Assembly (NCBI GenBank): GCA_020724555.1
Contig: DYGT01000004.1
Location: 9,564 to 73,563 of the forward strand
Direction: 5' to 3'
Length of the DNA: 64,000 nt
Source: Candidatus Microgenomatus sp.
GTDB taxonomy: Bacteria; Patescibacteriota; Microgenomatia; UBA8517
Under the pieces are notes generated by a model. That model was not told the origin of the DNA. It ran no database searches and saw only the letters and a program-made list of their open reading frames with translations. Positions 31,980 to 49,374 of this stretch are shown here, in pieces; positions within the stretch are counted from its first letter, which is position 1; the number at the start of each line of letters is the position of its first letter. A program made the translations under genes and the position numbers.

Positions 31980-33658
31980 TTAACTTCGTAGATCGTCACC
32001 CGGCTATTTTTGTAAATTTCTTCTATCCCGAGTTGGGTTTCTCCCAAAACTGCCCGCTGCCCATAAAGCCAGTAAATATAAGAAATGTTGTTATCCCTTA
32101 AAAAATTGTAAACAAAGCCATGGTCTTGGCTATTTAACCATTCTTCCACGCTTTCGCGTCTTTTAACCCAATCGTAGCCGGTAATGGTCAAGTTTACTTC
32201 ATCTTCCAAAAATACGGGCTTTTTCGAAAAAGAAGATACATAAGCACTACTTACATATGCGTATAACGGCACCGGAGGCACCATTTTGTCTTTAAGCAAA
32301 GGATCATAAGGATAAGTCAGGACAACGCCTTCCGGTTCATTGGCTAAAAATTGCAAAGCCTCAAATTCTTCTCGCAGCAAGGCTGCGGGTGGTACTTTTG
32401 TTAAGTAATGATATTTTAAAGTAGCAATACTCGTTGGTATTGTAAAAATTATTATCAAAGTAGTAAATAAAATAGCGGCCTTGCGGGGTAATTTTTTGTT
32501 TATACCAGACAAGACAATACCGGCTAAAATAGCCATAAAAAATTGCGCATAATATAAAAACTGTATCGTATTCCAGGCTGTGCCCTTTTGCAAAAAAATC
32601 ATTGGAGCTGCTATCCCGCCGAGAATAATCAAGGCGGAAATTATACTTTCCATTTCATATTTTTTTTCTTTAATTCTAAAAAAATACAATAAACCGAGAA
32701 GTTTTGTACTAAAGTTCCCCAAAATAAAAATGACAAATGCCCCTATATAAGAAGCAACCAATTTTAGATACACCCCTTGGGATTTATAGGCCGTCATGGC
32801 CTCGAAATAGCGTTGCCAACCAAAGCGGTCCGAAAGTCCCATCATTGTTTCTAAAAACCAAAAAGGCTTAATCACCAGAAGCCCGGATGAATTCCGATTA
32901 AGCGGTATAAATAAAATTAAGGATAAAACCAAAGACGCTAAAAATACAAAAAATTCTGAAAACTTTTTATTTTTAAAATAGCGGTATAAAGAATAGATAA
33001 ACAAAGCTGATAAAAGCAGTACCCCGGCGTACGCTTTAATTGATAAAAGAACCGAAAAACAAGTAGTGGCACCCCATGCCGTTTTGTTTTTTTTAGTTTT
33101 TAAATAAGATTGATAAAAAATAAGCCCCAAAAGCAGAATGATTAAAGACATGGCATAGGGAGGATTTATGAGCGTCGAAATTGCCTGTTGTGACCAAAAC
33201 ATAGACTCACCGTCAAAATTACCGTTTCTTATAAAACTTACAAGCCAGCCCAATGAGCCGCCAAAATATATAAAAAACAAACTCCAGTTCGCACTATCCC
33301 TACCCCGCCAATTTCCAACAAAGATATAAGTCAAGACACCGATAAGCAGCGAAAATAAGACAGGAATTATTTGAAAATATAAATATCTGACCGGAATTCT
33401 TGTCAACGCGTGTAAGATAGCAACAAAGATATCAAAACCTATATGGTAATTTCTTATACTTTCACCGGCAAAAATGGGCATTTCCAAACTCCCCTTTGCC
33501 AAAGATTCAATAATTGACATATGCCATATACCGTCATGTCCGTTCGGGCCCCAAAAACCAAGACCGTATTCATACATCAGACCTGAACGAACCATAACAA
33601 AGGACCAAGAGATACTGCCGATTAAGATAATAAATATGGTTAAGCGTTTTGCGCCCAT
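31976..33658 (-). CDS. Large polytopic membrane protein (560 aa), unclassified. Possible GT-C-like enzyme with a GHDGIWHMSIIESLAKG loop.
   Basis: About 13 hydrophobic segments. The loop motif is loosely reminiscent of family D DGxHYxxIAxxGY. Confidence 0.35.
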   Translation of the reverse strand: MGAKRLTIFIILIGSISWSFVMVRSGLMYEYGLGFWGPNGHDGIWHMSIIESLAKGSLEMPIFAGESIRNYHIGFDIFVAILHALTRIPVRYLYFQIIPVLFSLLIGVLTYIFVGNWRGRDSANWSLFFIYFGGSLGWLVSFIRNGNFDGESMFWSQQAISTLINPPYAMSLIILLLGLIFYQSYLKTKKNKTAWGATTCFSVLLSIKAYAGVLLLSALFIYSLYRYFKNKKFSEFFVFLASLVLSLILFIPLNRNSSGLLVIKPFWFLETMMGLSDRFGWQRYFEAMTAYKSQGVYLKLVASYIGAFVIFILGNFSTKLLGLLYFFRIKEKKYEMESIISALIILGGIAAPMIFLQKGTAWNTIQFLYYAQFFMAILAGIVLSGINKKLPRKAAILFTTLIIIFTIPTSIATLKYHYLTKVPPAALLREEFEALQFLANEPEGVVLTYPYDPLLKDKMVPPVPLYAYVSSAYVSSFSKKPVFLEDEVNLTITGYDWVKRRESVEEWLNSQDHGFVYNFLRDNNISYIYWLYGQRAVLGETQLGIEEIYKNSRVTIYEVK

Positions 33659-34527
33659 GCTTCAAATTCTCCTGTATAAGCACGAAAGGAATAATTATTT
33701 ATACCCAATTTTATTGATAATTTTTTAAGATTTTCAAATATAAACGGGGAGTAATATTTAAGCCTGTTAAAAACATACTCAACACTTAAAACATGATAAG
33801 TTGTACTAATTTCTATATTTTTGAAACCAGCAAGTTCCAAAGCTTTACGCATGGATTGTTTATTAAAATAAGTCACATGCTCACCGGGTTTATAATGGTA
33901 CCACAACGAGCGCAAAATTTTTGCCCAATAGCCTCCTATATCACAGGTAATTAATAAAAGTATGCCGTTATTTTTTAAATATTTTCTGGCAAAACGAAGT
34001 TCCTCCACGGGATCTATAATATGCTCAATTACATCCTGGTAAATTATTACGTCATAAGTTCCCCTAAGTTTTGCTTTTCTTAAAGGGCCTTTATACACTT
34101 TTAAATTTCTTTTTCTGGCCTGAGATCTGGCAAATGCGGACACTTCCACGCCGTGCGCTTTGCTCCACCCCATTTTTTTTGCCTCAACCAGGCAATCGCC
34201 AAAAGCGCATCCTACGTCTAAAATGCTTCCTTTTCCGTATTTTTTAGCAATTTTTTCTAAACGGTGGCGAAATGTTTTTTTACTAATCTTCATCCCTTCA
34301 TAATAATTCGCGTAACCGCCTTTGGGATTATCATTAATATAATATGACCTATCATACTGCGCTAATAAATCGTCAGCGGGTGTGTGATCCCAGACCATAG
34401 AACATTTTTTGCACCTACTTAAACGGTAACCCTGCATTGCCCAATACTTTTCCCTGTCTCGGCTTCCACACACCGGACAGGAATCAATTGTTTTTAACGG
34501 TATTTCTGATAATTTTTTTGGCATCAT
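33640..34527 (-). CDS. Class I SAM-dependent methyltransferase with an N-terminal CxxC...CxxC zinc ribbon
   Basis: CPVCGS...CKKCSMVW; ILDVGCAFGDCL; YDVIIYQDVIEHIIDP. Confidence 0.8.
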   Translation of the reverse strand: MMPKKLSEIPLKTIDSCPVCGSRDREKYWAMQGYRLSRCKKCSMVWDHTPADDLLAQYDRSYYINDNPKGGYANYYEGMKISKKTFRHRLEKIAKKYGKGSILDVGCAFGDCLVEAKKMGWSKAHGVEVSAFARSQARKRNLKVYKGPLRKAKLRGTYDVIIYQDVIEHIIDPVEELRFARKYLKNNGILLLITCDIGGYWAKILRSLWYHYKPGEHVTYFNKQSMRKALELAGFKNIEISTTYHVLSVEYVFNRLKYYSPFIFENLKKLSIKLGINNYSFRAYTGEFEAWAQNA

Positions 34528-35965
34528 AAATTAAGCTTTTTCCGATTATTAAATATGAAAAAATTAAATAAAATATTCCACCGCTTCCTACCATAAATAC
34601 AAAATTAAACCAATTTGCCGACAGCCGGTTGACTAAAACAAATAAATATATCCCCATACTAATCGCAGATACAAAAGGCGCCGCTGCTTTTAGGATAGAA
34701 AAATCTACATATTTTTTCCCTACCCATATGGCCACAACAGAACTTAACCCTACCAATGCGTATCCGGCAGATGCTCCTAAAACATCCCATTTTATAGCCA
34801 AAATCGGCACTAAAATAACAGTCAGGATTGTATACATTATCGTAATCTTAATAGTTGTCTTCACTCTGCCAATGGCGGTAAGCATATTTGATATTTGCGT
34901 AGCAAAAGCGGCAAACAAAACATTAAAAGCTACAAACCACATTAACGGAGCCGCCGGTGCCCATTTTTGATATCTGGGAAGGATTATCATCAAATCCGGC
35001 GCCAGCAACAAAAAGCCAATGACGCTTGGATATACCAAAAAAGTTATAAACATGATTGAACGCGTGACAACTTTTGCCAGCTCGATTTTGTTGTCCTGCA
35101 TACGGGAAAATGCCGGAAAAGAAACTTTGGTAACGTTGTCCATAAAAAGCCGGAGTGGTATTTGTGTTAACCGCATAGCCGTTCCCAAGTAGCCGACGGC
35201 CGCTTGGCTTAAGATGCCTCCAAGCAAAAGAATAACCCCCTGGTCTTTCAAAACGGAGATAAAAGTATTAATTTGATACGGAATACCGAATTGCAAAAGA
35301 CCCTTAAGTGCCTTTCGGGAAAATGCGATACCCGGCATCCACGGCTCAAGAATATAAATAGTAACAAGTCCTACAACACCGCGGATAAGAACAGCATATG
35401 TAAAACTTCTAAGTCCCAAACCCGTATAAGCAAAATAAACCAAAGACACGTTATAAAATAAATTTTCTAATATTTCGGGCAGTACAAATTTTCCAAATTC
35501 AAGCTTACGCTCCAACAAAACCGAGGGAATGCTTTTTAAAGAAGAAAAAAACAAAGAAAAGCCCAAAGCAAAGAGCAAATATTTCCCCTCAGTGCTTAGA
35601 TCATAAGCTTTTATAACAAGCGGACTTGATAAAAAAAGTATCAAAATCAAAACTATTACCAAGCCTTGCTGAACGGTAAAGGTGGTTTTTAGTTCCAAAT
35701 CGCTTAACTTTTCTTTTTTCTGGATCAGTGCTGCTGCCAAACCCACGTCTGAAAAATACATTAGAAAATAGACAAAGGCGTTTACTATGTAATAAACCCC
35801 GATTTCCTGCGGATCCAAAAAGGCCAAAAGTAAAAGCTGGGAAACGGTGGTAATTGCATTTAACAAAAACCCTCGACCGGTCAAAATTGCCACCCCCCTG
35901 ACCGCTCTTTTTTTAACGGTATCTAAGTTAAGCTCGATGGCGTTATCTAAATTCTGCTCTTCCAC
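34484..35965 (-). CDS. PST-family oligosaccharide/polysaccharide flippase (Wzx-like)
   Basis: RGVAILTGRGFLLNAITTVSQLLLLAFLDPQEIGVYYIVNAFVYFLMYFSDVGLAAALIQ is a typical Polysacc_synt N-terminus. 493 aa, about 14 TM segments. Confidence 0.8.
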   Translation of the reverse strand: MEEQNLDNAIELNLDTVKKRAVRGVAILTGRGFLLNAITTVSQLLLLAFLDPQEIGVYYIVNAFVYFLMYFSDVGLAAALIQKKEKLSDLELKTTFTVQQGLVIVLILILFLSSPLVIKAYDLSTEGKYLLFALGFSLFFSSLKSIPSVLLERKLEFGKFVLPEILENLFYNVSLVYFAYTGLGLRSFTYAVLIRGVVGLVTIYILEPWMPGIAFSRKALKGLLQFGIPYQINTFISVLKDQGVILLLGGILSQAAVGYLGTAMRLTQIPLRLFMDNVTKVSFPAFSRMQDNKIELAKVVTRSIMFITFLVYPSVIGFLLLAPDLMIILPRYQKWAPAAPLMWFVAFNVLFAAFATQISNMLTAIGRVKTTIKITIMYTILTVILVPILAIKWDVLGASAGYALVGLSSVVAIWVGKKYVDFSILKAAAPFVSAISMGIYLFVLVNRLSANWFNFVFMVGSGGIFYLIFSYLIIGKSLIYDAKKIIRNTVKNN

Positions 35966-36015: not shown

Positions 36016-36837
36016 ATGATTCGCCTAAAAAATATTTACAATAAAACAAAACTTCCTGTCTTGGTTTTTCTTTCAATAATTTTTTGGCCACTTAATCTTT
36101 TCATCAACAATTCTCCGAAAACTTTTTTGGTATCCGTAGCTCCGGCAATACTCACAGCTTTGTCTTATCAAGAGCCGTTATTTCTGCTTTTTATTCCCAT
36201 AATTTCTCCTAAATTGTTACTATTTCCGCTTATATTCATCCTGGTGGTGTTTTATTTCAAAAAAATATCTAAAACCAACGTCTTTTTATTTTTAATATTT
36301 TACTCATTCATCTTTTTATTAAGATGGCCTGACTTTTATAACCAGTCTATTTTTCCTTATGACTATGAAGCTCAACAACAAGTAGTTCGGGACACACAAC
36401 TATATGACTCAGTGTTTTTGGCCAGATTATTTCACAATAAGGCAAAAATTAGGATTGATGATTTTAACACCAATCTGTTTTCGCTTCTGGACCCAAACAA
36501 TTATTTCTTCAATTTTCATCCACGCTTACCCCTCTCTCCCAACCAAATGCTGTCAAAATATGGCTTTGCTACCTTCGTACCACTCCTAATTGGTTTTATA
36601 AATTTAAATAAGATTAAGTATAAGGAATATTTGATAAGCGTTTTTATTGGCGCATTGGTCAGCCTGTCTTTTTTGAAAATTTTCGACGCGCACGATTTTA
36701 TCTTGTGGATACCGCTTTCTATTCTAATTTCATCCGGTTTATCAAAAATTGATAATTTATCAAATAGAAAAAATTACTTTGGGGAAATTTATGCAGTAGT
36801 TTTATTAATTGAACTAGTCAGATTGGTAATTAAATGA
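36016..36837 (+). CDS. Half-size family A derivative (273 aa), homologous to the central region of the GT39-like paralogs and lacking the DE N-terminus and C-terminal domain
   Basis: ARLFHNKAKIRIDDFNTNLFSLLDPNNYFFNFHPRLPLSP parallels family A FHNK...FLFFTGDWQNPRHSPP. ATGA overlap with the downstream full-length A8. Confidence 0.5.
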   Translation: MIRLKNIYNKTKLPVLVFLSIIFWPLNLFINNSPKTFLVSVAPAILTALSYQEPLFLLFIPIISPKLLLFPLIFILVVFYFKKISKTNVFLFLIFYSFIFLLRWPDFYNQSIFPYDYEAQQQVVRDTQLYDSVFLARLFHNKAKIRIDDFNTNLFSLLDPNNYFFNFHPRLPLSPNQMLSKYGFATFVPLLIGFINLNKIKYKEYLISVFIGALVSLSFLKIFDAHDFILWIPLSILISSGLSKIDNLSNRKNYFGEIYAVVLLIELVRLVIK

Positions 36838-38507
36838 TGAATAAATTTAAAAAATACTTAATCTATATAATCTTTTTTGTTATTTTACTCCTTGCTTTTG
36901 TAACGCGTTTTTATAAATTGGGCCAGGCTCCCGCTGGTCTTTATTTAGACGAAGCGGCACAAGGTTACAATGCATATTCAATTTTAAAAACAGGCAAAGA
37001 CGAATTCGGAAAAGGTTTTCCGATAATTTTCAGGTCATTTAATGATTTTAAAACACCTGTTTATATTTATCTGATCACTCCGCTTATACCAATTTTTGGA
37101 TTAACTAAATTTACTGTTCGTTTTCCGTCTTTTCTCTTCAGCCTTTTAACTTTTCCCTACTTATACTTACTTATTAGCAACATCACAAACAAAAAACTTG
37201 CCAAAAAACTGGCATTATTAACATCTCTTTTGCTTGCAATTTCCCCTTGGCATATTTTATTTGGCAGAACGAACTTTGAATGCAATGTTGCCCTATTTTT
37301 CTTCATTGCCGGATCATATTATTTTTTTATTGGTCTTAATAAGCCAAAATATCTGATTTTATCGGCCCTATTTTGGGCACTGGCAATCCCGAGCTACCAT
37401 TCACAACGCATCATAACGCCCATTATGATGCTTGTGCTTTTATTTAAATACAAAAACCAACTTTTAAAAGATGGCTCCCGAAAATACATTTTATACGGCT
37501 GTTTGCTGGGGTTTATAATTTTGCTTCCAACATTGTTAGTTTCATTTACTCCGGGTTTTTTATCCCGGGCTACCACTTTAAATATCTTTAAAACTTCACC
37601 GGTGGGAATTATTGATACCAAAAGCATTTTCTCTTTTATCATTAACAATAAAATTTACCTAAACGTAAGGGAATTTATGTCTTTGTATATATCTTATTTC
37701 TCTCCTATAAATATGTTTGTTTTAGGAGATTACGGTTTGCGAAGTTCTTTTCCTGCTCTTTCAACTTTTTTTGTGTGGCAGGCGCCTTTTTACTTTATCG
37801 GACTGTACTACCTTCTTAAAGATAAAAATCTTGGAAAAATCAGGCACTACACAATAAGTCTGCTTTTAATCGCACCCATTCCGGCTGCCGTCACCCGTGA
37901 TCCGTACACAACAATACGTGCTTTACCTTTAGTTATACCGCAATTAATCGCTATTTCCCTGGGAATCATCTTTGTTTATGAAAAGCTTGCAAAACAATGG
38001 ATTAAAATAGCTGCCATAATTTTATTTTTGTCCACGGTCGGCTACAGCCTTCTTAAGCTATATAGTTCAGTAATAGTCCTTAACGAATATTATCGTGCAC
38101 CGTATTGGAACTATGGCTGGGAAAAAGTCGTTGATTCCATAAAACTACACGCCGGAGAGATGCCGGTGGTCGTGGACGACGCCAGAGGTGAACCATATAG
38201 CCAAATTGTCTTTTTTCTAAAATATGACCCTGAGGATTTTCAGGCCAAAAACACTATAGATTTAAAAAATTACTACACCGACATGAGCAGAAGAAAAAGC
38301 AAAACTATTGGCAATATAGAAACCCGGGGAATCAACTGGGAACACGATTTAAAAAAAGAACAAATTCTGGTTGGGGATTCTCTGGCTATCTCCCGAGAAC
38401 AAATAGAAAGACACAATTTAACTTTATTAGATGAAATTTTATTTCCGGATGGCTCTGTGGCTTTTAGAATAGTTCGCACCAACCAAGAGGCCAAAGACAG
38501 CAATTAA
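36834..38507 (+). CDS. GT39/PMT/ArnT-like GT-C membrane glycosyltransferase, family A paralog A8 (the only plus-strand one)
   Basis: YLDEAAQGYNAYSILKTGKDEFG; FNDFKTPVYIYL; LIAPIPAAVTRDPYTTIRA; C-terminal FPDGSVAFRIV. Confidence 0.75.
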   Translation: MMNKFKKYLIYIIFFVILLLAFVTRFYKLGQAPAGLYLDEAAQGYNAYSILKTGKDEFGKGFPIIFRSFNDFKTPVYIYLITPLIPIFGLTKFTVRFPSFLFSLLTFPYLYLLISNITNKKLAKKLALLTSLLLAISPWHILFGRTNFECNVALFFFIAGSYYFFIGLNKPKYLILSALFWALAIPSYHSQRIITPIMMLVLLFKYKNQLLKDGSRKYILYGCLLGFIILLPTLLVSFTPGFLSRATTLNIFKTSPVGIIDTKSIFSFIINNKIYLNVREFMSLYISYFSPINMFVLGDYGLRSSFPALSTFFVWQAPFYFIGLYYLLKDKNLGKIRHYTISLLLIAPIPAAVTRDPYTTIRALPLVIPQLIAISLGIIFVYEKLAKQWIKIAAIILFLSTVGYSLLKLYSSVIVLNEYYRAPYWNYGWEKVVDSIKLHAGEMPVVVDDARGEPYSQIVFFLKYDPEDFQAKNTIDLKNYYTDMSRRKSKTIGNIETRGINWEHDLKKEQILVGDSLAISREQIERHNLTLLDEILFPDGSVAFRIVRTNQEAKDSN

Positions 38508-40091
38508 AGACACCAAGCTAATGATATCAACCAACGCCCTACTTCTGGTCTCTTTCCACTTTACATAAACTTTGTGTTTGCCGGGGGACAGGAAAAAAGT
38601 GATTTGGCCATAGGGCTCTCCGGGTGTAGTTTTAACTTCAGTTCCGTCTACTTTTGTCACCCAACCTGGGAAATAATACGCCCAGAAGGTGAAAGTCGAA
38701 TCCTTTTCGGCTAACACTTCAAACTCATAGTGGATATCAGAAATTTTCTTGGTTTCAAATATCTGTCCATTTGTAATTTCAGCTTTACTTTCAAAGGGCC
38801 TTTCCGGGCGCTTGTCTGCCCATTTGGGTAAAAGCAAATAATCTTCGCTGTAGTTAGGGTCGTTAAAAAAACGCTCCAAATAATAAGCGTCGGACTTATA
38901 AACAACTTCTGCAGGTCTAAAGTAATTAAAAGTTAATATCAAAGAAAAAGTTATAAAAATTAAGGCAAATATTTTTTCGTTTTTTGTGTTATCTAAAAAT
39001 ATTGCTAAAGAAATAGCAGAAAAAAATCCGGTTAAAAACAAAAGCCTCCAGGGAAACTGGATAAAACCATAAAAAGGTATTACTCTCCAAATGGGATAAG
39101 TCCTTATGTTCATAAACAAAACGCTTATGGCAAAACCGAATATTGTAAGTAAAGCCAATGTCAATTGCTTTGTTTTTTTTCTTTTTAAGAAAATCAAGAT
39201 TCCCAGCGATAAAACGGCAGCCATGTTTACAATCCCTAACTGAAATGAAATCTCGTCCCCGGGTCCCCATACGGAACTGCCATAACCCCAGCTAGGCAAA
39301 AGCAGTTGTTTTATAAAAGGGAAATGGTCAACCAATAAAAAAGGCGTTTTATCTGCCACTAAACCCTGATCCATAAGCGCCGGCAGCCACCAATAAATAG
39401 TGATCAAAGCCGAAGAAAATGCACTAAGAATTAATTTTCCCAAAATCTTTAATCTATCCTTTTGTTTGTAGATTTCGAAAATTGCCAATATCCCCAAAAA
39501 AGGTATTGTTAATACCCACAAATAATTATGCGATAATAAATAAATACTTAAAACAAGGCTGAATATTGAAAAATTTTTGATGTTTGTCTTTCTGATTAGC
39601 CTTACTAAACCCCATGCGACAAGTGGCAAAATTGCAATGATTAATACCTCTCCCATCGCTCCACGCACATATAGTTGTACGGCTCTGTAGGGCGTGTATA
39701 AATACAATAAGGCACCGGCCAGGGATGCTATTTTGTCCATATAAAGTCGCAAAAACCCATACATGCTGTAAAGAGATACAAATATACTTGTAAGAAAAAC
39801 CAATTTAAAAGCCAAGGTGAGACTGCCCAATAACGAGTAATATAAAGCCCCGAGATAAAAAGGAAAAACGTAATAAAAATGGAATAAAGGATATCCCAAA
39901 CCCCAGGTAAAATCCGGCCCTAACCGCGGCGGCAACTGCCCAGCAAAAAAAGCGCGGTACATCTCATAAATATCGGCTAAATGGTGTAGGTCATGGGGCT
40001 CGTAAAATCCGGGTAACAAAAGCGGCAGACCCGCTGGAATCGCACCAAAAGTTAATATTATTAATGGCCAGTATTTTTTTAAGTATTTCAT
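38439..40091 (-). CDS. Polytopic membrane protein, family B paralog B1 (GT-C-like candidate)
   Basis: PGFYEPHDLHHLADIYEMYRAFFAGQLPPRLGPDFTWGLGYP; late FIQFPWRLLFL. 550 aa. Confidence 0.5.
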   Translation of the reverse strand: MKYLKKYWPLIILTFGAIPAGLPLLLPGFYEPHDLHHLADIYEMYRAFFAGQLPPRLGPDFTWGLGYPLFHFYYVFPFYLGALYYSLLGSLTLAFKLVFLTSIFVSLYSMYGFLRLYMDKIASLAGALLYLYTPYRAVQLYVRGAMGEVLIIAILPLVAWGLVRLIRKTNIKNFSIFSLVLSIYLLSHNYLWVLTIPFLGILAIFEIYKQKDRLKILGKLILSAFSSALITIYWWLPALMDQGLVADKTPFLLVDHFPFIKQLLLPSWGYGSSVWGPGDEISFQLGIVNMAAVLSLGILIFLKRKKTKQLTLALLTIFGFAISVLFMNIRTYPIWRVIPFYGFIQFPWRLLFLTGFFSAISLAIFLDNTKNEKIFALIFITFSLILTFNYFRPAEVVYKSDAYYLERFFNDPNYSEDYLLLPKWADKRPERPFESKAEITNGQIFETKKISDIHYEFEVLAEKDSTFTFWAYYFPGWVTKVDGTEVKTTPGEPYGQITFFLSPGKHKVYVKWKETRSRALVDIISLVSLIAVFGLLVGANYSKSHRAIRK

Positions 40092-41750
40092 CTAAGTGTA
40101 GTCAAAAATCTTTTTCTTATTTTTAATCCAAATACCGGAAATTACAACAAAAATAAAGGTAATAATGGTAAAAAGGTCTGCTAACGCTCGAAACCGGGTT
40201 TCTTCAAAAAACCCACGCACCATATATGTACCGGGTTCCAAATTAAGAGAAATTAACCCAAGCTCCCGCGTGGGGATAATTTGCTGTTTTTCATTTTCCA
40301 AATAAACGTTCCATCCCGGGAAATAAATTACCGGAACAGCGATCTCTGCCGCAGTGTAGACTTTTGCGTCAAAAAAGAAATAGTTTGATTTTTTTGTAAA
40401 ATTTAAAGTCTCAGCTTCTCCCGTAAGTACTAAAGCATGGTTTGGTGCCAATGCCTTTGGATTAGTTGAGGCAGTTTTCGGCAAATAATCAAGTACAGCT
40501 GACCCTTGTTGCTTTATTAAGTTTCTGCCCGTTAATTTGCTAATATCCGTTTCATTAGGATAGTGGTGCTCGGCTCTAAAATAGCCGTGATACAAAAGTA
40601 TCGGTACAACCAAAACCATAGCCACAATTGCTTTTGATATTTTGCTATTTAAGACAGAACCCGACACAAAGGACAACAAAAAAATACTTATTCCCAAAAA
40701 ACGCCAGGGAAACTGGACAAACTCCAAAAACGGCAAGCTCTGCCAAATAAAGCTTGAGCGACCGTGTGTCATGAAGGTTGAAAGTGAAACTCCGAGCAAC
40801 AAAACCCAAATTAGGGCAAATTTTGTTTTATCTTTTTTCCAAAATTTTAGCGACAATAATGCAGCCAAAACCGCGGTCAAGCTATGAAACCAGCCAATTT
40901 GAAAAGACATGCCATCCTCCGGTCCAAAAACAGAACCCCCAAACCCCCAGGATCGCTCAAAAAAAAGCTGTTTTAATGAAACGAAGTGTGCATGAAAATC
41001 ATAATATTCATCAATAAATAATTCAGTTTGGATCAAATTGCGCTCAAAAAACGCAGGGAACAAAAAAAAGGCAGACAGACCAAATGCCAATATAAGCGCA
41101 AACCCATAATCAATAAGTAAACTTGCCCTTTTTGTCTTTAGAAATAAATAAGCAGTCCAAATGACGGTAAAAGGCGCAAACATCACTAAAGATATATTGT
41201 GTGTCATAAACAAAAACCCCAAACTAATGCTTGTGTACAAAACATATTTCCAGCGTCTTTTTGTAGAGAGTAAATATAATCCATGCCAAACAAATGGCAA
41301 CAGCATAAGTGCAAAACTTTCAGCCAAGGCTCCACGCACATAGATGTCGAGCGCATGATAGGGCGCATAAACATACAAAAGTGCAGAAAACAGCGCTCCT
41401 CTATTTCCCCAAAATTCACGCGCAAAAATATACATGCCAATGCCCGACCCCAAAAGAGATATTAAAAACAATGCCTTTACGGCAGTAATATAAGACAATG
41501 AAAACTTGACTAAAATAGCGCCCAGATAATAGGGAAAGGCACTGTAATAATTAAACATCGCCTGGCCATAACCCCATGCCATATCTGGTGAATAGCGGCA
41601 CGGTATTTGCCCGTCCATTAAGCATTTATCCATCTGCCAAAGACGCATCACCTGTAAATCATCGTGCATACTGAAATAACCCGGGCGAAGCAAATACCAC
41701 CATGCCGGTATAGTCAATATTAAAAAAATGATTAAATATTTTTTAAACAT
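40092..41750 (-). CDS. Polytopic membrane protein, family B paralog B2 (GT-C-like candidate)
   Basis: PGYFSMHDDLQVMRLWQMDKCLMDGQIPCRYSPDMAWGYGQ; FVQFPWRFLGI. Confidence 0.5.
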   Translation of the reverse strand: MFKKYLIIFLILTIPAWWYLLRPGYFSMHDDLQVMRLWQMDKCLMDGQIPCRYSPDMAWGYGQAMFNYYSAFPYYLGAILVKFSLSYITAVKALFLISLLGSGIGMYIFAREFWGNRGALFSALLYVYAPYHALDIYVRGALAESFALMLLPFVWHGLYLLSTKRRWKYVLYTSISLGFLFMTHNISLVMFAPFTVIWTAYLFLKTKRASLLIDYGFALILAFGLSAFFLFPAFFERNLIQTELFIDEYYDFHAHFVSLKQLFFERSWGFGGSVFGPEDGMSFQIGWFHSLTAVLAALLSLKFWKKDKTKFALIWVLLLGVSLSTFMTHGRSSFIWQSLPFLEFVQFPWRFLGISIFLLSFVSGSVLNSKISKAIVAMVLVVPILLYHGYFRAEHHYPNETDISKLTGRNLIKQQGSAVLDYLPKTASTNPKALAPNHALVLTGEAETLNFTKKSNYFFFDAKVYTAAEIAVPVIYFPGWNVYLENEKQQIIPTRELGLISLNLEPGTYMVRGFFEETRFRALADLFTIITFIFVVISGIWIKNKKKIFDYT

Positions 41751-43395
41751 GTTTAAATTTATACCAATAAAGCACCAAAGCTAATACGCTTGCCACAGTT
41801 AAAGCATTTGCAATTTTGCGGATAGGGGTGTCCACCAATTCCAAATACAAGGCATATTCTCCCCGACCCAGGGTAAAAGAAGGCAAACCAAGCGGGTTAT
41901 CGTAGCTAAATTTTGTTTTTTGCCCGTTAACATAAAGATTTGTCTCCGGAAAATAATATTGCGGTAAACTAATGACGGCACTATCGGATATGACCGAGAT
42001 GTTATAGTTTATCCAGTCCGTACCTCTTTTTTGGGAATTGACTAATAATTGCCCTTGTTCAACAATCGGCCCGTCAGGTGCCTTATCGTTCGGAGGCTCA
42101 GTGGCATAAATCGGTAAATAATCAAAAATGCTTATTGTTTGTTGTTTATCCCAAAGTTCACCTGAAAATTTTTCTTTGTCCGTCATGGCTACTATTTTTT
42201 CCGGTTTAAAAAAAGAAAAATTAAATAACGCCAAAAAAACAACAACCATTGCCAATGGCAGTAACTTTGGCTTTAAATAATCTCCAAATAATCCCGCCAG
42301 CAGCGAAATAAACAAAATGGCTAAAGTTAAAAACCGCCAGGGAAACTGGACAAATGACAATACTGGAAATAACCCCCAAATAAAATTCGAGCGGCTATGA
42401 GTCATAAATATGCTCAAGAAAAAAAGAAATAATACAAAAATAAAAAGCTTCAGATTTTCAGATTTCCTTAAAACAATAAGGGACAAAAGCGAAATAACGG
42501 CAAAAATTATGTGAGCCATGCCTAAACCCAAAAATAACTCATCTTTCGGCCCCAAATCGCTTGTCCCATAACCCCAAAAAGTACGGACAAAAAGCTGGGA
42601 GAGGCTTAAAAAATGCCGCTTATAATCAAAATATCCCATGGTTATAGTATCAATATGTACATATTTTTTCTCAAACCAAGCAGGAAGCAAATAAAAAGCG
42701 GATAGTCCAACTCCCCCAAGCACGGCGCATATTAAATTAAAAATAGATTTTTTAATATTACTTTTGTTTTGTAGCAAAAAATATCCGGCCCAAAGGGCAA
42801 AAAAGGGGGCAGCAATTAAGCTTGTGATATTATGCGTCATCAGCAAAAATGCAAAAAACACGCTTAAACCAAGTGTCGCGTGCTTTTTGTTTTCAATTAC
42901 CCGTTTTGTGTACAAAAATATGAATGGTAAGAAACTCATAGCCCAAAATTCGCCCACAGCACCCCTGACATACATATCTACCGCACGGTAAGGGGCATAC
43001 ACAAAAAACAAAACCGCCAGCATACTTGCCGTTTTATTGAAAAATTCACGCGCCAACAAATACATGCTTATGGCCGATATGGGGATAGTTATAATAAACC
43101 CGACTTTTACGCTGTCGATAATGCTTATTCCTAAAAAAGTTAATGCAGCCATAAAGTAATAAGGCAGAGGACCATAAAAATTAAACTGTGGATAACCGTA
43201 ACCATACCCCATGTCCGGCACCCACCGGCAAGGGATTTGCCCGTCTAAAATACATTTACGCATCTCTAGCGTGCGCATTGCCTGCATGTCGTCGTGCATA
43301 GGAAAATATCCGGGCTTTGCGATACTCCAAAAGGAAGGGAGCAATAGAATTACTAAAATTATAAAAAACAAATTTTTTTTAAGAAGCCTTTTCAT
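41743..43395 (-). CDS. Polytopic membrane protein, family B paralog B3 (GT-C-like candidate)
   Basis: PGYFPMHDDMQAMRTLEMRKCILDGQIPCRWVPDMGYGYGYP; FVQFPWRFLTL. Confidence 0.5.
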   Translation of the reverse strand: MKRLLKKNLFFIILVILLLPSFWSIAKPGYFPMHDDMQAMRTLEMRKCILDGQIPCRWVPDMGYGYGYPQFNFYGPLPYYFMAALTFLGISIIDSVKVGFIITIPISAISMYLLAREFFNKTASMLAVLFFVYAPYRAVDMYVRGAVGEFWAMSFLPFIFLYTKRVIENKKHATLGLSVFFAFLLMTHNITSLIAAPFFALWAGYFLLQNKSNIKKSIFNLICAVLGGVGLSAFYLLPAWFEKKYVHIDTITMGYFDYKRHFLSLSQLFVRTFWGYGTSDLGPKDELFLGLGMAHIIFAVISLLSLIVLRKSENLKLFIFVLFLFFLSIFMTHSRSNFIWGLFPVLSFVQFPWRFLTLAILFISLLAGLFGDYLKPKLLPLAMVVVFLALFNFSFFKPEKIVAMTDKEKFSGELWDKQQTISIFDYLPIYATEPPNDKAPDGPIVEQGQLLVNSQKRGTDWINYNISVISDSAVISLPQYYFPETNLYVNGQKTKFSYDNPLGLPSFTLGRGEYALYLELVDTPIRKIANALTVASVLALVLYWYKFKHV

Positions 43396-44107
43396 ATTTT
43401 CCTTGAATATTCCACCAACGTATCAGCAAAAGGTCACGAAGCGATGTGACAACGGCGTCAAACAATTTCACTTTTGTATCTTTTCGATTCTTCCAGGCAA
43501 CGGGGATTTCTTTAATTTCATACCCATATTTGTGAGCTAAAAACAAGATTTCGGCGTCATATACCCAGCGATTGATCAATGCATGGGAGAAAATATCTTT
43601 GGCAGCAGCCCTTCTAAATCCTTTAAAACCGCAGGTAAAATCTGATAAATTTACGCCCATAATCGTCCTTGTTAAAGTTGTAAATACTTTTCCCATCGAT
43701 TCGCGGGCAATTGGTTGATGAACGACAATATCCGAGCCTTTAGTTCTTCTGGAAGCAATTGCTACATCCGTTGATTTTAGGGCTTCCAAAAAATCTTTTA
43801 CTTTTTTTATATCAACCGACAAGTCTACATCAGAAAAGATTATGTAATGACCCTCTGCTGCCTGCATCCCTTTTTTAAGGGCAGCGCCTTTACCCATGTT
43901 TTTGCCTGATTTTAGTAGCTTTACATTTTTATTTCCATATTTTCTGACGATCGCAGCAGTTTTATCTCTTGAACCATCATCAACTACGATTATTTCCCAG
44001 TTTAGATTTAACTTAGTCAAGTACGCTACACTTCTATCCAAGGTATTTTGGATAATATTTTCTTCGTTATATGCCGGAAATATTAAGGTTAAATCAGGAT
44101 TTTTCAT
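43379..44107 (-). CDS. GT2 polyprenyl-phosphate sugar synthase (DPM1/GtrB-like)
   Basis: LTLIFPAYNEENII; WEIIVVDDGSRDKTAAIV; GKGAALKKGM; SDVDLS. Confidence 0.8.
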   Translation of the reverse strand: MKNPDLTLIFPAYNEENIIQNTLDRSVAYLTKLNLNWEIIVVDDGSRDKTAAIVRKYGNKNVKLLKSGKNMGKGAALKKGMQAAEGHYIIFSDVDLSVDIKKVKDFLEALKSTDVAIASRRTKGSDIVVHQPIARESMGKVFTTLTRTIMGVNLSDFTCGFKGFRRAAAKDIFSHALINRWVYDAEILFLAHKYGYEIKEIPVAWKNRKDTKVKLFDAVVTSLRDLLLIRWWNIQGKYEKAS

Positions 44108-45362
44108 AAATTGCCTTTAGAGATATATAAAAAGAAGAAGCCGCAAATATGCTTCTGACTATACTTTTAACCATAAAAACATCGATATAGTGGGATAGGA
44201 TTTTGTCTAAAGGTTTAGCTTGTAAAATTTTAGGAAATAGCGGGTTAAACAATCCAAATGAAAGTGAGGGTTCAAACAAAAACGTCAAAACCAGCCAGCT
44301 TATAAATATGACCGCCACCAACTCCCACATATAAAAATTATTTTTTACTAAAAACCATATCAGCAGTGGGCTCGCCCACACAAACCATTGGGGGTGAAAA
44401 TGGCTTACGGAAAAAATTAACAACAAGGCGGCCAGATACAATCCGTTTAAAGAAACGCGGTGTCTTTGGTAATAAACTAAAAAATATAATACAAACAATA
44501 AAAGTACAAATGGATAAACCACCTCGGCGGCCGTAACATTAAGCCCCATAAATAGCATTTTTTGGCTTTTGGGAGAAAATAAAACCATGCTGCGGAAAGC
44601 GCTTGAACCTAAAAAAGGCAGGATTGTTATAACAAATGGGGTTAAGCCTAAAAGAATCAGCTTAAATCTTGATAAAAATTTACCCGATAAATAAAAGGCT
44701 GCAAGGGGCAACAACAAAAGCGGATACAATTTATACGCCCCTCCGATTCCCAGACTGACCACCGCTAAGTTAGGCTTCTGTTTTTTAACAAAATAAAGCG
44801 AGAGCACAACAAAAAAAGTGGGCAAAATATCGAGCTGCCCGATCATAAAAGTGGCGTATATCGTCAGCGGATTAAACATCCAAAAAGCAAACGCTTTTAT
44901 TTTTTGTTTTTTATCAGAAAACAAGCTAGAAAGCATAAAGGCTATCCCGATATCAAAAAACAAATATGGTAATTTATAAAACAAGAGGTGGCGATAAAGG
45001 CCCTGATATTCATAAACATTATCCAGATTACTCCAAAGCCATGGAATAAAATTATTATCTGTAAACGGAGCGACTAAGATCCGAAATAACCCAAGCGTAA
45101 AATATGTAAGAGGTGGATAGATAAAAATATCAGAAACCCCGAAATTTAAAACCAAAGGGTGTTCAGGGGGAAGACTTAGCAAGTACTCGTAGATATTAAA
45201 TACGCCCTCGGAAGAAAAAAAATATGCCGTAAAGCTGTGCCCCCAAAGGTCCGGGTGCAGGGTTATAGGCATTAAAATTAGCCTGAGCATTATTCCCAGA
45301 ATAGCCATTTTAAACCACCAAAAATTTTCTGTTTTTTTCATATTTTTAAAGTTTATCATCAT
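44094..45362 (-). CDS. Polytopic membrane protein, family E paralog E2
   Basis: LHPDLWGHSFTAYFFSSEGVFNIYEY. 422 aa, many TM segments. Confidence 0.45.
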   Translation of the reverse strand: MMINFKNMKKTENFWWFKMAILGIMLRLILMPITLHPDLWGHSFTAYFFSSEGVFNIYEYLLSLPPEHPLVLNFGVSDIFIYPPLTYFTLGLFRILVAPFTDNNFIPWLWSNLDNVYEYQGLYRHLLFYKLPYLFFDIGIAFMLSSLFSDKKQKIKAFAFWMFNPLTIYATFMIGQLDILPTFFVVLSLYFVKKQKPNLAVVSLGIGGAYKLYPLLLLPLAAFYLSGKFLSRFKLILLGLTPFVITILPFLGSSAFRSMVLFSPKSQKMLFMGLNVTAAEVVYPFVLLLFVLYFLVYYQRHRVSLNGLYLAALLLIFSVSHFHPQWFVWASPLLIWFLVKNNFYMWELVAVIFISWLVLTFLFEPSLSFGLFNPLFPKILQAKPLDKILSHYIDVFMVKSIVRSIFAASSFYISLKAIYEKS

Positions 45363-46926
45363 TCATGCTTGTTTCCGACATAAGCTCAAAAAGATAAAAA
45401 GTATCATATTCTCCGTGTTTATGAAATTCAAAAATATCTTGGGGGCGCAAAGCTTTTTTAAATTCTTTTACAATACGAAGGTTATGATTTTCAAAATCAG
45501 AAAACTTTAGCCTCGAACTGTTCACTGCAAAATAGGTTAAATTACCGGCTTTTTTTGACTCAACAAGGCTCTCGGGAACTTCTTTAAAATCCAACCCGGT
45601 GCCGATTACCAAAACATTTGGCGTTCCCTGCAAATAAATTTGCATGCCGTCCGGAAGCGTACCAAAATAACCTTCCGTTCCCACAACTATTTTTTTGTCC
45701 GGATTTTCCGTTTGAATATCTTTAATTATGTCCGACGCTTCCTTAATACCCGTGCCCGATGTCCACTCTTCCAGATAACCGGACCGTTCGCTTCTGGGGA
45801 GATTGGCGGCGCTTGGGTTAGTTAAAAGTTTTTGATTATAAATAAAGGCCTGCAGTATAAATATGCCAAGTATTATTAGAGCAGCTTTTTTTAAATATAA
45901 TTTTTGAGTAGAAAAAAAACCGGCCGCTAATATATACAAAGGTGGAAGCGTAAACAAAATATAGCGTGCCGTAAATACCTTGGCATACATTGCCTGTATG
46001 CTTAGCGGAAACAAAAATAAAAATAAAAGCAAAAGTGTCTCACGCCATTTGCTTTTTATATTTAAAAATACGGCTCCAACGGCTAAAAACAAGATTGTTC
46101 CTGGTCCCATAATCCAAATCCACTCCAAAGCACGGTCAAGATGAGGAATAAACGGATCCATGGGATTTTGCCAAATATGACTGATGGGAAAAACATAGTC
46201 CTGAGTACGCGAGCTTAGCATATGAAAATTGGGGCCTAAGCGCTGAATGTTATATAAACAAAAAGCAAAAGTATAAATAACACCCACCAAAAACCCCAAT
46301 TGCAAAATGTTTATAAATATCTTTTTTTTAGGCCAAGGAAGGCTTAATATCCAAAACAAAGGCAGCATGATTGCTACAAATAAAGCCGGTGATTTAGTAA
46401 GACTGGTCAGCCCCAGAAACATACCTGTCATAATTGCGGTATCGATTCGTTTTGTTTTAGCGGTAAGGGCTGCAAACATAAAAGTCAGGGTTGTTAAAAA
46501 AGCCAAAAGAGAATCCACCAAAGCCATCCGGTCAAAAAACAGCGAAAAAGGCGATATTGCCCAAAGCAAAGAGGCTACAAGCGATACTTTTTTGTCGTTA
46601 AATAACAACTGGCTAAGTAAAAATATTGCTATCACAGTCCCCAACCCAGCTGCTACGGAAACCAATCTTCCGGCAACTAACGGGTCAGAGAATCGGTTTA
46701 CTAAAAACATTAAAACCCACATAAATAAAGGTTGTTTACCATCGGAAAGTGGCAAAAAACGAAGCGTCGGCTCGGCCGCCATCACTTGCGACCAGCGTAT
46801 ATAGATGGCTTCGTCTGCAAATATAGGTAAAATCGTTAGGTTAAAAATCCGAAGAAATAAAGCGATTAATAAAATTATGAGTAACACCGCCAAATAGGGC
46901 AACCAAGACATAATTTCTTTTCTCAT
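45346..46926 (-). CDS. ArnT/GT39-like GT-C membrane glycosyltransferase (A10) with a C-terminal extracytoplasmic domain
   Basis: ILPIFADEAIYIRWSQVMAAEPTLRFLPLSDGKQPLFMW parallels ArnT DEARYAEISREML...PHLNGLRYFEKPPLGYW. Confidence 0.6.
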   Translation of the reverse strand: MRKEIMSWLPYLAVLLIILLIALFLRIFNLTILPIFADEAIYIRWSQVMAAEPTLRFLPLSDGKQPLFMWVLMFLVNRFSDPLVAGRLVSVAAGLGTVIAIFLLSQLLFNDKKVSLVASLLWAISPFSLFFDRMALVDSLLAFLTTLTFMFAALTAKTKRIDTAIMTGMFLGLTSLTKSPALFVAIMLPLFWILSLPWPKKKIFINILQLGFLVGVIYTFAFCLYNIQRLGPNFHMLSSRTQDYVFPISHIWQNPMDPFIPHLDRALEWIWIMGPGTILFLAVGAVFLNIKSKWRETLLLLFLFLFPLSIQAMYAKVFTARYILFTLPPLYILAAGFFSTQKLYLKKAALIILGIFILQAFIYNQKLLTNPSAANLPRSERSGYLEEWTSGTGIKEASDIIKDIQTENPDKKIVVGTEGYFGTLPDGMQIYLQGTPNVLVIGTGLDFKEVPESLVESKKAGNLTYFAVNSSRLKFSDFENHNLRIVKEFKKALRPQDIFEFHKHGEYDTFYLFELMSETSMNDDKL

Positions 46927-47087: not shown

Positions 47088-47894
47088 CTAAGAATTGATT
47101 TTATACTTACCTTGAATTGCATTCAGGCGCACACGAACTAAGTCCCGCAATCCCTGCCATGCGTCTTTTATGGGACTAACTCTTTTTGTATCCTGGTGGT
47201 GCCAAATGACTGGAACTTCCACAACTTTCAAACCAAGCTTTCTTGCTACATAAAGTACTTCCAAATCAAAACCGGCAGTAACGGCAGCACCTTTTGCTTT
47301 TTGTTCTTCACTAAAAATCTTTAAGCGTTTAAAAATTTCCTTTGACGCGTCTTGTTTGAATGCTTTAAAACCACACTGGGTATCTTTAAAGGGCAAACGC
47401 AATATGAGGCTACGAAGGAAAGAAAATCCCCAGGCCATGGCTTTTCGGACCAAAGGAGCTCCCTGCCTTCCTGAACGTACACCAATCACCACATCTGCTC
47501 CTTTTCTGAATTCCGGTATAAACTTATCAAATTCAGGCAAAGGGGTTGCCTGGTCCATATCTGTAAATAAAACAATATCCCCCCTGGCTTCAAGCATACC
47601 GGCAATTACCGTACCGCCTTTACCGCGGTGTGGCTGGGCAGATACACGAAATCCTTTGTGTTTTTTGGCGTAATCTTGTGCCAATTTTAAGGTATTATCT
47701 GTAGACTTATCGTCTACCACCAGCACTTCCCAGGTAAAATTTTGTTTAACTAAATACTGGTTTACACTCTCAAGCGTACCGTTTTTGATATTATCCGCTT
47801 CGTTATATGCGGGTATAACAACGGACAGATAAAGATTTTTTGTGTCTAAAGCCATAGCCTTTATTATTGTAACTTGATTACTTTGTAAAACCAA
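47088..47894 (-). CDS. GT2 polyprenyl-phosphate sugar synthase (DPM1/GtrB-like)
   Basis: LSVVIPAYNEADNI; WEVLVVDDKSTDNT; GKGGTVIAGM; TDMD. Confidence 0.8.
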   Translation of the reverse strand: MVLQSNQVTIIKAMALDTKNLYLSVVIPAYNEADNIKNGTLESVNQYLVKQNFTWEVLVVDDKSTDNTLKLAQDYAKKHKGFRVSAQPHRGKGGTVIAGMLEARGDIVLFTDMDQATPLPEFDKFIPEFRKGADVVIGVRSGRQGAPLVRKAMAWGFSFLRSLILRLPFKDTQCGFKAFKQDASKEIFKRLKIFSEEQKAKGAAVTAGFDLEVLYVARKLGLKVVEVPVIWHHQDTKRVSPIKDAWQGLRDLVRVRLNAIQGKYKINS

Positions 47895-49374
47895 ACATAG
47901 GATCGGTCAAATTTGCATTATTCCCACTGCAGCTTTTTTTGATTTCATCCTCCTTTTTGTGAGAATATTTTTCATAATCCGGCAGGATTAACCCTAGTGC
48001 ACCAAAAGATTTATCAATCCTGTCCACTTTGGTATGGGGAAAGACAATTGTATACACGGGGCTGCCAGAAGATGGCTGGTTGGCGTGCAGATCGTTTAAA
48101 TAAAAAATGTAGCGGTAACCAAGCTCATAACCGGGGTCTACAATGTATGAAACCGAAACACACGGGTAATTATGATCTTCGGCATCTTCGGCAATAAAAG
48201 CGACAACCTCATTTTTCTGTAAATAACCGCTTTTATTTTCCGGATAACGGGAAAAACGGTACAAATTAATAACAACAAACAAGGCAAGAATAAATACAAC
48301 AAAAGTTCTCATGTATCGCGTTAAATAAGCCAAGGCGGCACTTATTCCGAATATCCACACAACCACCATTCCGTTTAAATAATATTCGGATACATTAATC
48401 GCATTTAATGTGAAAAAAGAAACATATAATATTAACCAGATTACTAAAAGAGTCGCAAATCTGGGTTTTATATGCTTTTTAAAAACAGCGTATGTAAATA
48501 ACAAAAGAATAAGTCCATGTGCCCATATGTCCGGTATGTTAAAGACATCACCCCACAACAAATTCCGCGCATTTGTATTTGCAATTTGCATTAATCTGCC
48601 AAAACGAGAAGGTAAAGAAACATCTGCCGCAGAAGTGCCTCCCAATATAATAGCCTGTGTTTGGATAAACCCGTGCCTCAATTCAAAAACAAAATACGGA
48701 AGCATTGGTAAGATAAACGCGGCTAAAAAATAAAAAATGTTTTTAATGGCAATTTTTTGTTTAGATATGATTATTGCCAGAAAAAATAACGGAGCGACAA
48801 TCGCCAGCCCCAGGTTTAAATGCCACACTAAACCAAACAATAACCCGGCAGCGATAAATGCGCTTTTTTGTTTTCTTGCCAATACGAGATGAAGTGTATA
48901 CAGGAACCAAATACTCCAAAGATAAACAGGCATGGTGGGAACGACCTCTCGGTCCGTAAAAATTACAACATACGAAAAGCTGTATATTATGGCACCAATC
49001 AAGCCGGCTTTTCTGTCTATAATTTTTGTAAATACAAAATATATACTAAATACGGATAAAAGACTCAATATAGCGACCAACAAAAGACCGCCGTAAGGCT
49101 GTCCCGCAAAAAGTAGATAAAAAGGAATCAGTAAATAATAAAAAAACGGCCCTATAAATACGCCATGGACAGATGTCTCTTGGCCGATAAGCCTAAGGTG
49201 GCTGTTTTTAACCACATCCAAATAAAACCACGATGCCAAATCCTGATCGTGCCCATAATAATAATATGAAAGCGGCTTATAAACTCTTAAGGCAAAAGCA
49301 GCAATCATTACCACAAAAAAAACGTAATCTATTGGCTTAAGGTTGGAAAAAATATTTTGTAAGTTTTTCTTCAT
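47878..49374 (-). CDS. ArnT-like GT-C membrane glycosyltransferase, family C paralog C2
   Basis: YGHDQDLASWFYLDVVKNSHLRLIGQETSVHGVFIGPFFYYLLIPFYLLF. Confidence 0.55.
   Translation of the reverse strand: MKKNLQNIFSNLKPIDYVFFVVMIAAFALRVYKPLSYYYYGHDQDLASWFYLDVVKNSHLRLIGQETSVHGVFIGPFFYYLLIPFYLLFAGQPYGGLLLVAILSLLSVFSIYFVFTKIIDRKAGLIGAIIYSFSYVVIFTDREVVPTMPVYLWSIWFLYTLHLVLARKQKSAFIAAGLLFGLVWHLNLGLAIVAPLFFLAIIISKQKIAIKNIFYFLAAFILPMLPYFVFELRHGFIQTQAIILGGTSAADVSLPSRFGRLMQIANTNARNLLWGDVFNIPDIWAHGLILLLFTYAVFKKHIKPRFATLLVIWLILYVSFFTLNAINVSEYYLNGMVVVWIFGISAALAYLTRYMRTFVVFILALFVVINLYRFSRYPENKSGYLQKNEVVAFIAEDAEDHNYPCVSVSYIVDPGYELGYRYIFYLNDLHANQPSSGSPVYTIVFPHTKVDRIDKSFGALGLILPDYEKYSHKKEDEIKKSCSGNNANLTDPMFGFTK

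Follow-up and report, generated by a model that had tools for sequence, protein, structure and literature searches.

Three anciently diverged PF10131 proteins from a Microgenomates glycan-assembly island as probable GT-C transferases of polyprenyl-phosphate sugars

A trio of PF10131 genes

The window analysed here is a stretch of 64,000 nucleotides (nt) from Candidatus Microgenomatus sp. (contig DYGT01000004.1 of assembly GCA_020724555.1), and its subject is a set of three adjoining genes designated, in the order of their transcription, B3, B2, and B1 (Table 1). A preliminary description made from the sequence alone had placed here three contiguous, co-directional, polytopic paralogs of about 550 residues, and it did so correctly to the nucleotide: the products comprise 550–552 amino acids (aa) and are 29%–38% identical to one another. 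BLASTP alignments extend over the full length in every pairing, with B2 and B3 the closest (38% identity, E = 4e-115), followed by B1 and B2 (32%, E = 8e-67) and by B1 and B3 (29%, E = 5e-61), and this mutual similarity far exceeds chance. Further copies within the window were rejected, as a hidden Markov model (HMM) of the family, run against 50 large open reading frames (ORFs), detects B1–B3 only.

Translation bears out the sequence motifs quoted in that description. The codons for HDD lie at 41658–41666 in B2 and at 43288–43296 in B3, with HDL in its place at 39987–39995 in B1; DGQIPCR(Y/W) is found in B2 and B3, B1 having GQLPPR instead, and QFPWR is common to all three proteins. The genes are tightly packed. 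The end of GT2a—the gene directly upstream, encoding a glycosyltransferase family 2 (GT2) enzyme—overlaps the start of B3 by 17 nt; the overlap between B3 and B2 amounts to 8 nt, and no gap separates the TAG stop codon of B2 from the ATG of B1; by these junctions, GT2a, B3, B2, and B1 are translationally coupled. A promoter and terminator scan between 37.5 and 50.5 kb gave no excess of sites over shuffled sequence. At its 3′ end, B1 overlaps a convergent PMT_2 gene on the plus strand (36834–38507) by 69 nt (38439–38507), and identical metagenome contigs have the same gene calls recorded for this overlap.

The family had been described as unclassified and perhaps new, a view that has to be given up. 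Pfam family PF10131 (PTPS_related) has a gathering threshold of 26.4 bits on the whole-protein score, and all three proteins pass it, with 28.4 bits for B1, 39.7 for B2, and 34.5 for B3. The same threshold is passed by 58 of 58 aligned relatives, among which PMT_2 is also matched in seven and YfhO (PF09586) in five. PTPS_related is one of the 19 families in the Pfam GT-C clan CL0111 and is listed there as being of unknown function (Eisenhaber et al., PMC7801869). The B proteins are thus members of a catalogued family of the GT-C superfamily and not of an undescribed one. The match is partial, covering positions 1–310 of the 621 in the Pfam profile; because it begins at about residue 66 of the proteins, the first transmembrane (TM) helix and the loop running from HDD to DGQIPCR fall outside the Pfam model.

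No other named family claims the trio. The PMT_2 (PF13231) scores of the three proteins—20.9, 16.3, and 23.6 bits—do not reach the threshold of 26.1; PF09586 gives no match to any of them at E ≤ 1; neither STT3 in Pfam nor Arabinose_trans and DUF3367 is matched, WWD occurs in no copy, and no NCBIfam model matches B1, B2, or B3. PDB sequence searches, with B2 or with the profile of the 58 relatives as query, returned nothing meaningful. At E ≤ 1, neither Pfam nor NCBIfam returns the PTPS family itself, and the name that PF10131 bears is historical and misleading. The 58-relative profile retrieves 18,567 cluster representatives (clusters at 50% identity) at E ≤ 1e-3, of which 6,048 reach E ≤ 1e-30. 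More than 3,000 scored matches were obtained in a collection of 5.8 billion proteins, nearly all with PF10131; the few that carry names belong to Candidatus Woesebacteria or Patescibacteria and are labelled "hypothetical" or "6-pyruvoyl-tetrahydropterin synthase-related protein" at NCBI. The literature found on PF10131/PTPS_related amounts to one bioinformatic mention (as of unknown function) and two transcriptome tables, and searches for GT-C enzymes of Patescibacteria or Microgenomates turned up no pertinent work.

Fold, topology, and conserved residues

The AlphaFold2 model of B2 has a predicted local distance difference test score (pLDDT) of 91.2 and, together with hydropathy, gives 11 TM helices, a beta-sandwich (about residues 395–518), and a twelfth TM helix (residues 519–543). 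The GT-C-like architecture suggested in the preliminary description, with about 12 TM segments and a soluble domain at the C terminus, therefore stands in outline but needs one correction: the beta-sandwich is not terminal, as TM12 comes after it. In fold comparison, all strong structural matches are GT-C enzymes or the GT-C-fold protein PIG-U, with AglB, STT3, and PglB among the best. The fold is that of GT-C: many membrane helices, the N-terminal module conserved in this superfamily, and a first external loop (EL1) that is structured.

Alignment of profiles with hhalign leads in the same direction. The family profile aligns to the 13 PMT_2 paralogs of the window with 98.2% probability (E = 3.6e-14, 359 columns); Arg139, invariant in family B, pairs with the sole invariant Arg of the PMT_2 set, and HDD falls within 2–3 residues of the PMT_2 D-E motif. 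On these alignments, the B proteins are homologous to PMT_2 at the level of the superfamily, yet they are not PMT_2 members. With the one YfhO protein encoded in the window as template, the probability is 16%, a figure that, for a template of one sequence, carries no information. It is highly improbable that the B proteins are not glycosyltransferases at all but transporters, proteases, or pterin-related enzymes, a reading that draws on the PTPS in their Pfam and NCBI names. No transporter, protease, or PTPS family is matched at E ≤ 1, although the preliminary description had singled out a confident match of that kind, to a membrane family other than glycosyltransferases, as fatal to its assignment; the structural matches just described, the listing of the family in the GT-C clan (PMC7801869), and a neighbourhood of glycan-assembly genes only also speak against it.

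The acidic motif lies in the first loop, and three independent features favour placing that loop on the non-cytoplasmic side of the membrane. The N terminus reads MFKK, and the short, odd-numbered loops predicted to be cytoplasmic contain many Lys and Arg residues (REFWGNRG, KRR, TKRA, KFWKKDK, and NKKK). Cys43 and Cys51 are the sole cysteines of B2, and both lie in the HDD loop; the two are present together in 139 aligned members, absent together in 44, and found singly in none, which is the pattern of a disulfide pair, and B2 and B3 probably possess a disulfide in EL1. Lastly, four proteins in which a GT2 domain is fused to a family B protein (see below) have exactly one hydrophobic or TM segment between the GT2 domain and HDD, and since GT2 enzymes use nucleotide sugars, the fused GT2 domain must be cytoplasmic. 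The Lys/Arg distribution, cysteine co-variation, and fusion-protein spacing together suggest that the HDD loop is non-cytoplasmic; an HDD motif facing the cytoplasm, the other finding named in advance as damaging, is not predicted. By the model, both ends of the B proteins would be cytoplasmic, with 12 TM helices between them, and the beta-sandwich would sit on the outer face between TM11 and the anchoring helix. With the HDD loop directed outwards, all the family-invariant polar residues would in turn lie on the outer face.

These residues were read from an hmmalign column table of 41 B1-like, 64 B2-like, and 77 B3-like sequences. D30 is conserved in the 41 B1-like sequences, in 61/64 of the B2-like, and in 75/77 of the B3-like. 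R52, D56, R139, E144, H184, H255, and Q346-F-P-W-R350 are likewise conserved in all three groups and, with H29/D30, N185 (as H184/N185), and Q261, make up the family-invariant polar residues. The B2 and B3 groups retain the second Asp of the motif; in the B1 group, E (16), L (13), or D (11) stands at that position, and the B1 group as a whole has neither of the EL1 cysteines nor Arg36. B1 retains D34, R, and D together with the equivalents of R139, E144, H184, H255, and QFPWR. Because the B1-group pattern is itself conserved and the other invariant residues are shared, B1 is a conserved, specialised copy and not a decaying duplicate.

Conserved gene order and GT2 partners

A scan of one genome per species gave 274 relatives, from which 80 loci were kept; their sources are Woesebacteria, Daviesbacteria, Collierbacteria, Shapirobacteria, Amesbacteria, and unclassified Microgenomates or Patescibacteria. 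The family B ORFs in them were classed by best window paralog, with flanks limited to 6 kb. The order B3-B2-B1 recurs in 33 loci, and in a further seven with a fourth copy, spanning Woese-, Davies-, Collier-, and Shapirobacteria; a B3-like protein holds the first position in all of these (33 + 7). Two copies occur in 13 loci and one in 26. Since this order is conserved across Microgenomates, the triplication is old, and the copies would have separate, non-redundant roles; recent tandem duplication was rejected on the positional orthology of the copies across loci. Many of the loci (L004, L005, and L011–L013 among them) come from metagenome-assembled genomes, made in binchicken or SRP co-assemblies, that are labelled "uncultured Gammaproteobacteria" or "uncultured Pseudomonadales", yet these loci are syntenic with Woesebacteria and Microgenomates, and the names look like placeholders or mislabels.

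The conserved order of the three genes, together with their translational coupling, would also suit a single hetero-oligomeric machine in which B1 serves as a non-catalytic or regulatory subunit; EmbA and EmbB, by analogy, form a heterodimer. The loss from the B1 group of the second Asp, both EL1 cysteines, and Arg36 agrees with this, as do two B–B double-domain ORFs among the cluster representatives (P0121 and P0122), although the latter are unverified gene calls. Such a machine is nevertheless unlikely: the invariant Asp and every other polar residue invariant in the family are retained in B1 and in its 41 orthologues, unlike in a dead enzyme, and the single B gene in 26/80 loci, within the 6-kb flanks, indicates that the trio is not obligatory.

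Upstream of the trio lie GT2a, the polytopic protein M422, a PMT_2-type GT-C, and a second GT2 enzyme, GT2b; a Wzx-like flippase is encoded downstream (Table 1). The best PDB sequence matches of GT2a are GtrB (5ekp, 2e-16), the Pyrococcus furiosus dolichyl-phosphate mannose synthase PfDPMS (5mlz, 1e-13), and ArnC, and its best NCBIfam matches are PgfS, dolichyl-phosphate hexose transferase, and ArnC. It has no TM segments, and the transmembrane hairpin of GtrB is absent from both GT2a and GT2b; by sequence, GT2a is DPM1-like and no strict GtrB orthologue. The preliminary description had spoken of a GtrB-like synthase following the trio. The enzyme class (DPM1/GtrB) and the coupling are upheld, but as all these genes lie on the minus strand, the synthase precedes the trio.

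Among the 65 loci with enough upstream sequence, 33 have the B genes immediately preceded by orthologues of GT2b and then PMT_2, whereas GT2a, with M422, stands directly upstream of B3 in 14, all Woesebacteria-like; one or other arrangement, GT2a or the GT2b–PMT_2 pair, is thus found in 47/65. M422 accompanies GT2a in close relatives, and in other Microgenomates, the PMT_2 protein is the commonest gene directly upstream of the trio. An orthologue of the Wzx-like flippase lies downstream of the B genes in 42/65 loci. The conserved module is GT2b-PMT_2-B3-B2-B1-(Wzx), and on this comparative synteny, GT2a and M422 are a lineage-specific insertion. The donor-synthase/transferase module proposed earlier accordingly survives as a pairing with a GT2 enzyme, but its ancestral synteny partner is GT2b and not the adjacent GT2a.

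Fusion of GT2 with PF10131 is recurrent. It occurs in four of the loci (L041, L046, L066, and L068), and the N-terminal GT2 domains of the first three are 42%–45% identical to GT2b, as against about 30% to GT2a. Further fusions, about 820–830 aa long, are found among the cluster representatives (P0133, P0136, P0140, and P0156), and P0190 has the same arrangement, with a C-terminal half that only the family profile recognises, PF10131 giving no match there at E ≤ 1e-4. These fusions bear on another possible function, in which the B proteins would act as oligosaccharyltransferases, ligases, or polymerases, transferring or polymerising whole oligosaccharides from polyprenyl-diphosphate carriers in concert with the Wzx flippase. 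The placing of AglB, STT3, and PglB among the best structural matches, the presence of the flippase gene downstream both in the window and in 42/65 loci, and a weak Wzy_C match in one relative would be in keeping with en bloc transfer. It is improbable, however, given the fusions, the absence of WWDxG from the B copies, and a C-terminal domain that is not of STT3 type but a beta-sandwich of about 120 aa.

Table 1. Features of the window, with positions counted from its first nucleotide
Feature	Position	Strand	Description
B3	41743-43395	minus	550 aa, ATG start, PF10131 GT-C protein; first of trio in transcription order
B2	40092-41750	minus	552 aa, ATG start, PF10131 GT-C protein; middle of trio
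B1	38439-40091	minus	550 aa, ATG start, divergent PF10131 GT-C protein; last of trio
B2 DGQIPCR	41595-41612	minus	
B2 QFPWR	40701-40715	minus	
B2 beta-sandwich domain	40197-40568	minus	about 120 aa; predicted (AlphaFold2 model)
B2 C-terminal TM helix	40122-40196	minus	predicted (AlphaFold2 model)
GT2a	43379-44107	minus	242 aa, cytoplasmic GT2 of DPM1/GtrB/ArnC class; Glycos_transf_2 E 4e-33
M422	44094-45362	minus	422 aa, polytopic, about 9 TM; GT87 only weakly (E 0.053)
PMT_2-type GT-C (PMT45)	45346-46926	minus	526 aa; PMT_2 E 1.9e-10, PMT E 2.1e-7
GT2b	47088-47894	minus	268 aa, second DPM1-like GT2; Glycos_transf_2 E 1.2e-27, PgfS E 1.2e-18
Wzx-like flippase	34484-35965	minus	493 aa; Polysacc_synt_3 E 7.7e-52; downstream of trio
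Seven polytopic ORFs	31976-33658, 22311-23834, 17793-19037, 17203-17796, 5090-6214, 58547-60205, 44094-45362		no significant Pfam match
GT2 with C-terminal GtrA/DPMS TM domain (PF04138)	57339-58544		archaeal DPMS-like architecture
Sugar-phosphate nucleotidyltransferase	60855-61577		NTP_transferase E 2e-56
Short-chain dehydrogenase	7285-8034		E 3e-63

The trio lies within a nearly unidirectional glycan-assembly island on the minus strand that takes up almost the whole window (1–60205). It comprises about 13 PMT_2-type GT-C paralogs, one YfhO gene (23824–26193), the three PF10131 genes, at least nine GT2 genes, three GT4 genes—one of them fused to a methyltransferase (1392–3089)—two Wzx-like flippases (3849–5093 and the one downstream of the trio), and two stand-alone methyltransferases. 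Seven polytopic ORFs, M422 included, have no significant Pfam match (197–560 aa, 6–12 predicted TM segments); several have orthologues in related loci, for example, 31976–33658 and 17793–19037, and possibly these ORFs, too, encode divergent GT-C enzymes or proteins resembling Wzy. Within the glycosylation gene string, the product of 49337–50284 (315 aa) scores 28.4 bits against a threshold of 27 for PF08014 (MATCAP, microtubule-associated tyrosine carboxypeptidase), which points to a metallopeptidase-like protein. The nucleotidyltransferase and the short-chain dehydrogenase of Table 1 also belong to the island and are candidates for nucleotide-sugar supply or modification. Among the cluster representatives, very long ORFs with several GT-C domains also occur (P0139, of 3329 aa; P0154, of 1670 aa; P0121; P0122; and P0170), combining PF10131 with PF10131, PF10131 with PMT_2, or YfhO with PF10131 and PMT_2; these may be genuine fusions of several enzymes or else products of read-through in gene calling.

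Proposed role and likeness to known systems

B3, B2, and B1 are likely to be anciently diverged, non-redundant GT-C transferases that move polyprenyl-phosphate sugar to acceptors at the cell surface. In the proposed pathway, cytoplasmic GT2b, and in this lineage also GT2a, would use a nucleotide sugar to glycosylate polyprenyl phosphate, and the lipid-linked monosaccharide would then be flipped across the membrane. Each B paralog would have a site of its own to glycosylate on an extracytoplasmic acceptor, which is most likely a glycopolymer of the surface and possibly a protein; the PMT_2-type GT-C encoded just upstream would work alongside. D30 would serve as the catalytic or metal-binding acid of EL1, a role suggested by its conservation, and the donor class is suggested by synteny and fusion with GT2 enzymes of the DPM1/GtrB class.

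Several points weigh against this proposal. The GT2 domains of five fusions (L068, P0133, P0140, P0156, and P0190) belong to another GT2 subtype, whose product is perhaps not a polyprenyl-phosphate sugar, and in genomes this dense in GT2 and GT-C genes, some co-occurrence by chance is expected. No GtrA-family gene lies between 34.5 and 50 kb, and none adjoins the trio; a GT2 (57339–58544) carries, as a fusion, the sole GtrA domain of the window and with it the one candidate there for a flippase domain of GtrA type. The PF10131 model covers the B proteins only in part, the searchable literature holds no experimental data on any PF10131 member, and the activity and acceptor of the B proteins are, like the donor class, inferred.

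A bolder version of the proposal would make the triad, the PMT_2 GT-C, and the DPM1-like GT2 a dedicated multi-subunit machine that builds or branches a Microgenomates-specific surface glycopolymer at the outer face from polyprenyl-phosphate sugar, much like the Emb arabinosyltransferases. This is a rather doubtful prospect; were it true, CAZy would gain a glycosyltransferase family founded on PF10131, and the class of acceptor would be new as well.

With about 18,500 clusters at 50% identity that match the profile, PF10131 is a large family, and bacteria of the Candidate Phyla Radiation, such as Woesebacteria, give very long strings of genes to GT-C enzymes. The conserved order GT2-PMT_2-B3-B2-B1-Wzx, with the GT2 fusions, provides a testable donor–transferase pairing for PF10131. 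The analysis contributes the conserved triad with its ancestral partners GT2b and PMT_2, the finding that GT2 fusions recur, a set of invariant residues, and a disulfide that is probable in EL1; the understanding of GT-C enzymes is unchanged, and a misleadingly named family is given a probable role.

Among known systems, the B proteins share with PF10131 the profile match found in all three and in 58/58 relatives, but they differ in their C-terminal half, which is a short beta-sandwich with a TM anchor. Compared with the PMT_2/ArnT-like enzymes (PF13231; GT39/GT83-type), family B has H-D-D where those have D-E, and it has signatures of its own (DGQIPCR, YVRGA..E, THN, and QFPWR). The WWDxG motif and the STT3-type C-terminal domain of STT3, PglB, and AglB (GT66) are not present. 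The mycobacterial arabinosyltransferases EmbC-EmbA-EmbB and AftD show about 10% identity to the B proteins, which are at most half their size; the resemblance of the Emb gene organisation to the trio may be taken as an analogy.

YfhO (PF09586), a GT-C of Firmicutes, glycosylates teichoic acids or Ser/Thr-rich proteins together with a GT2 of the CsbB/GtrB/PgfS type, the cytoplasmic GT2 making a C55-P-sugar that the extracytoplasmic GT-C transfers (PMC12041528). The logic proposed here, of GT2 plus GT-C, is the same, and PgfS is the best NCBIfam match of both GT2a and GT2b; YfhO is, however, about 800–860 aa long as against about 550 aa, and the window has a true YfhO gene at another place (23824–26193). 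Two- and three-component systems of extracytoplasmic glycosylation include GtrA/B/Gtr*, CsbB/YfhO, PgfS/PgfM1, and the GT136 system (PMC11127046, PMC12041528). The trio differs from the Gtr type in having three GT-C genes to its one, no dedicated small flippase gene alongside, and GT2a and GT2b without the GtrB hairpin. As in the Gtr type and GT136, a synthase is encoded beside the GT-C, here the GtrB-like GT2a overlapping the start of B3. The GT136 system of Citrobacter pairs a polyprenyl-phosphate-sugar synthase with a GT-C bearing an additional, carbohydrate-binding-like domain on its outer side (PMC11127046), and the B proteins, too, are predicted to have an extra domain on the outer face.

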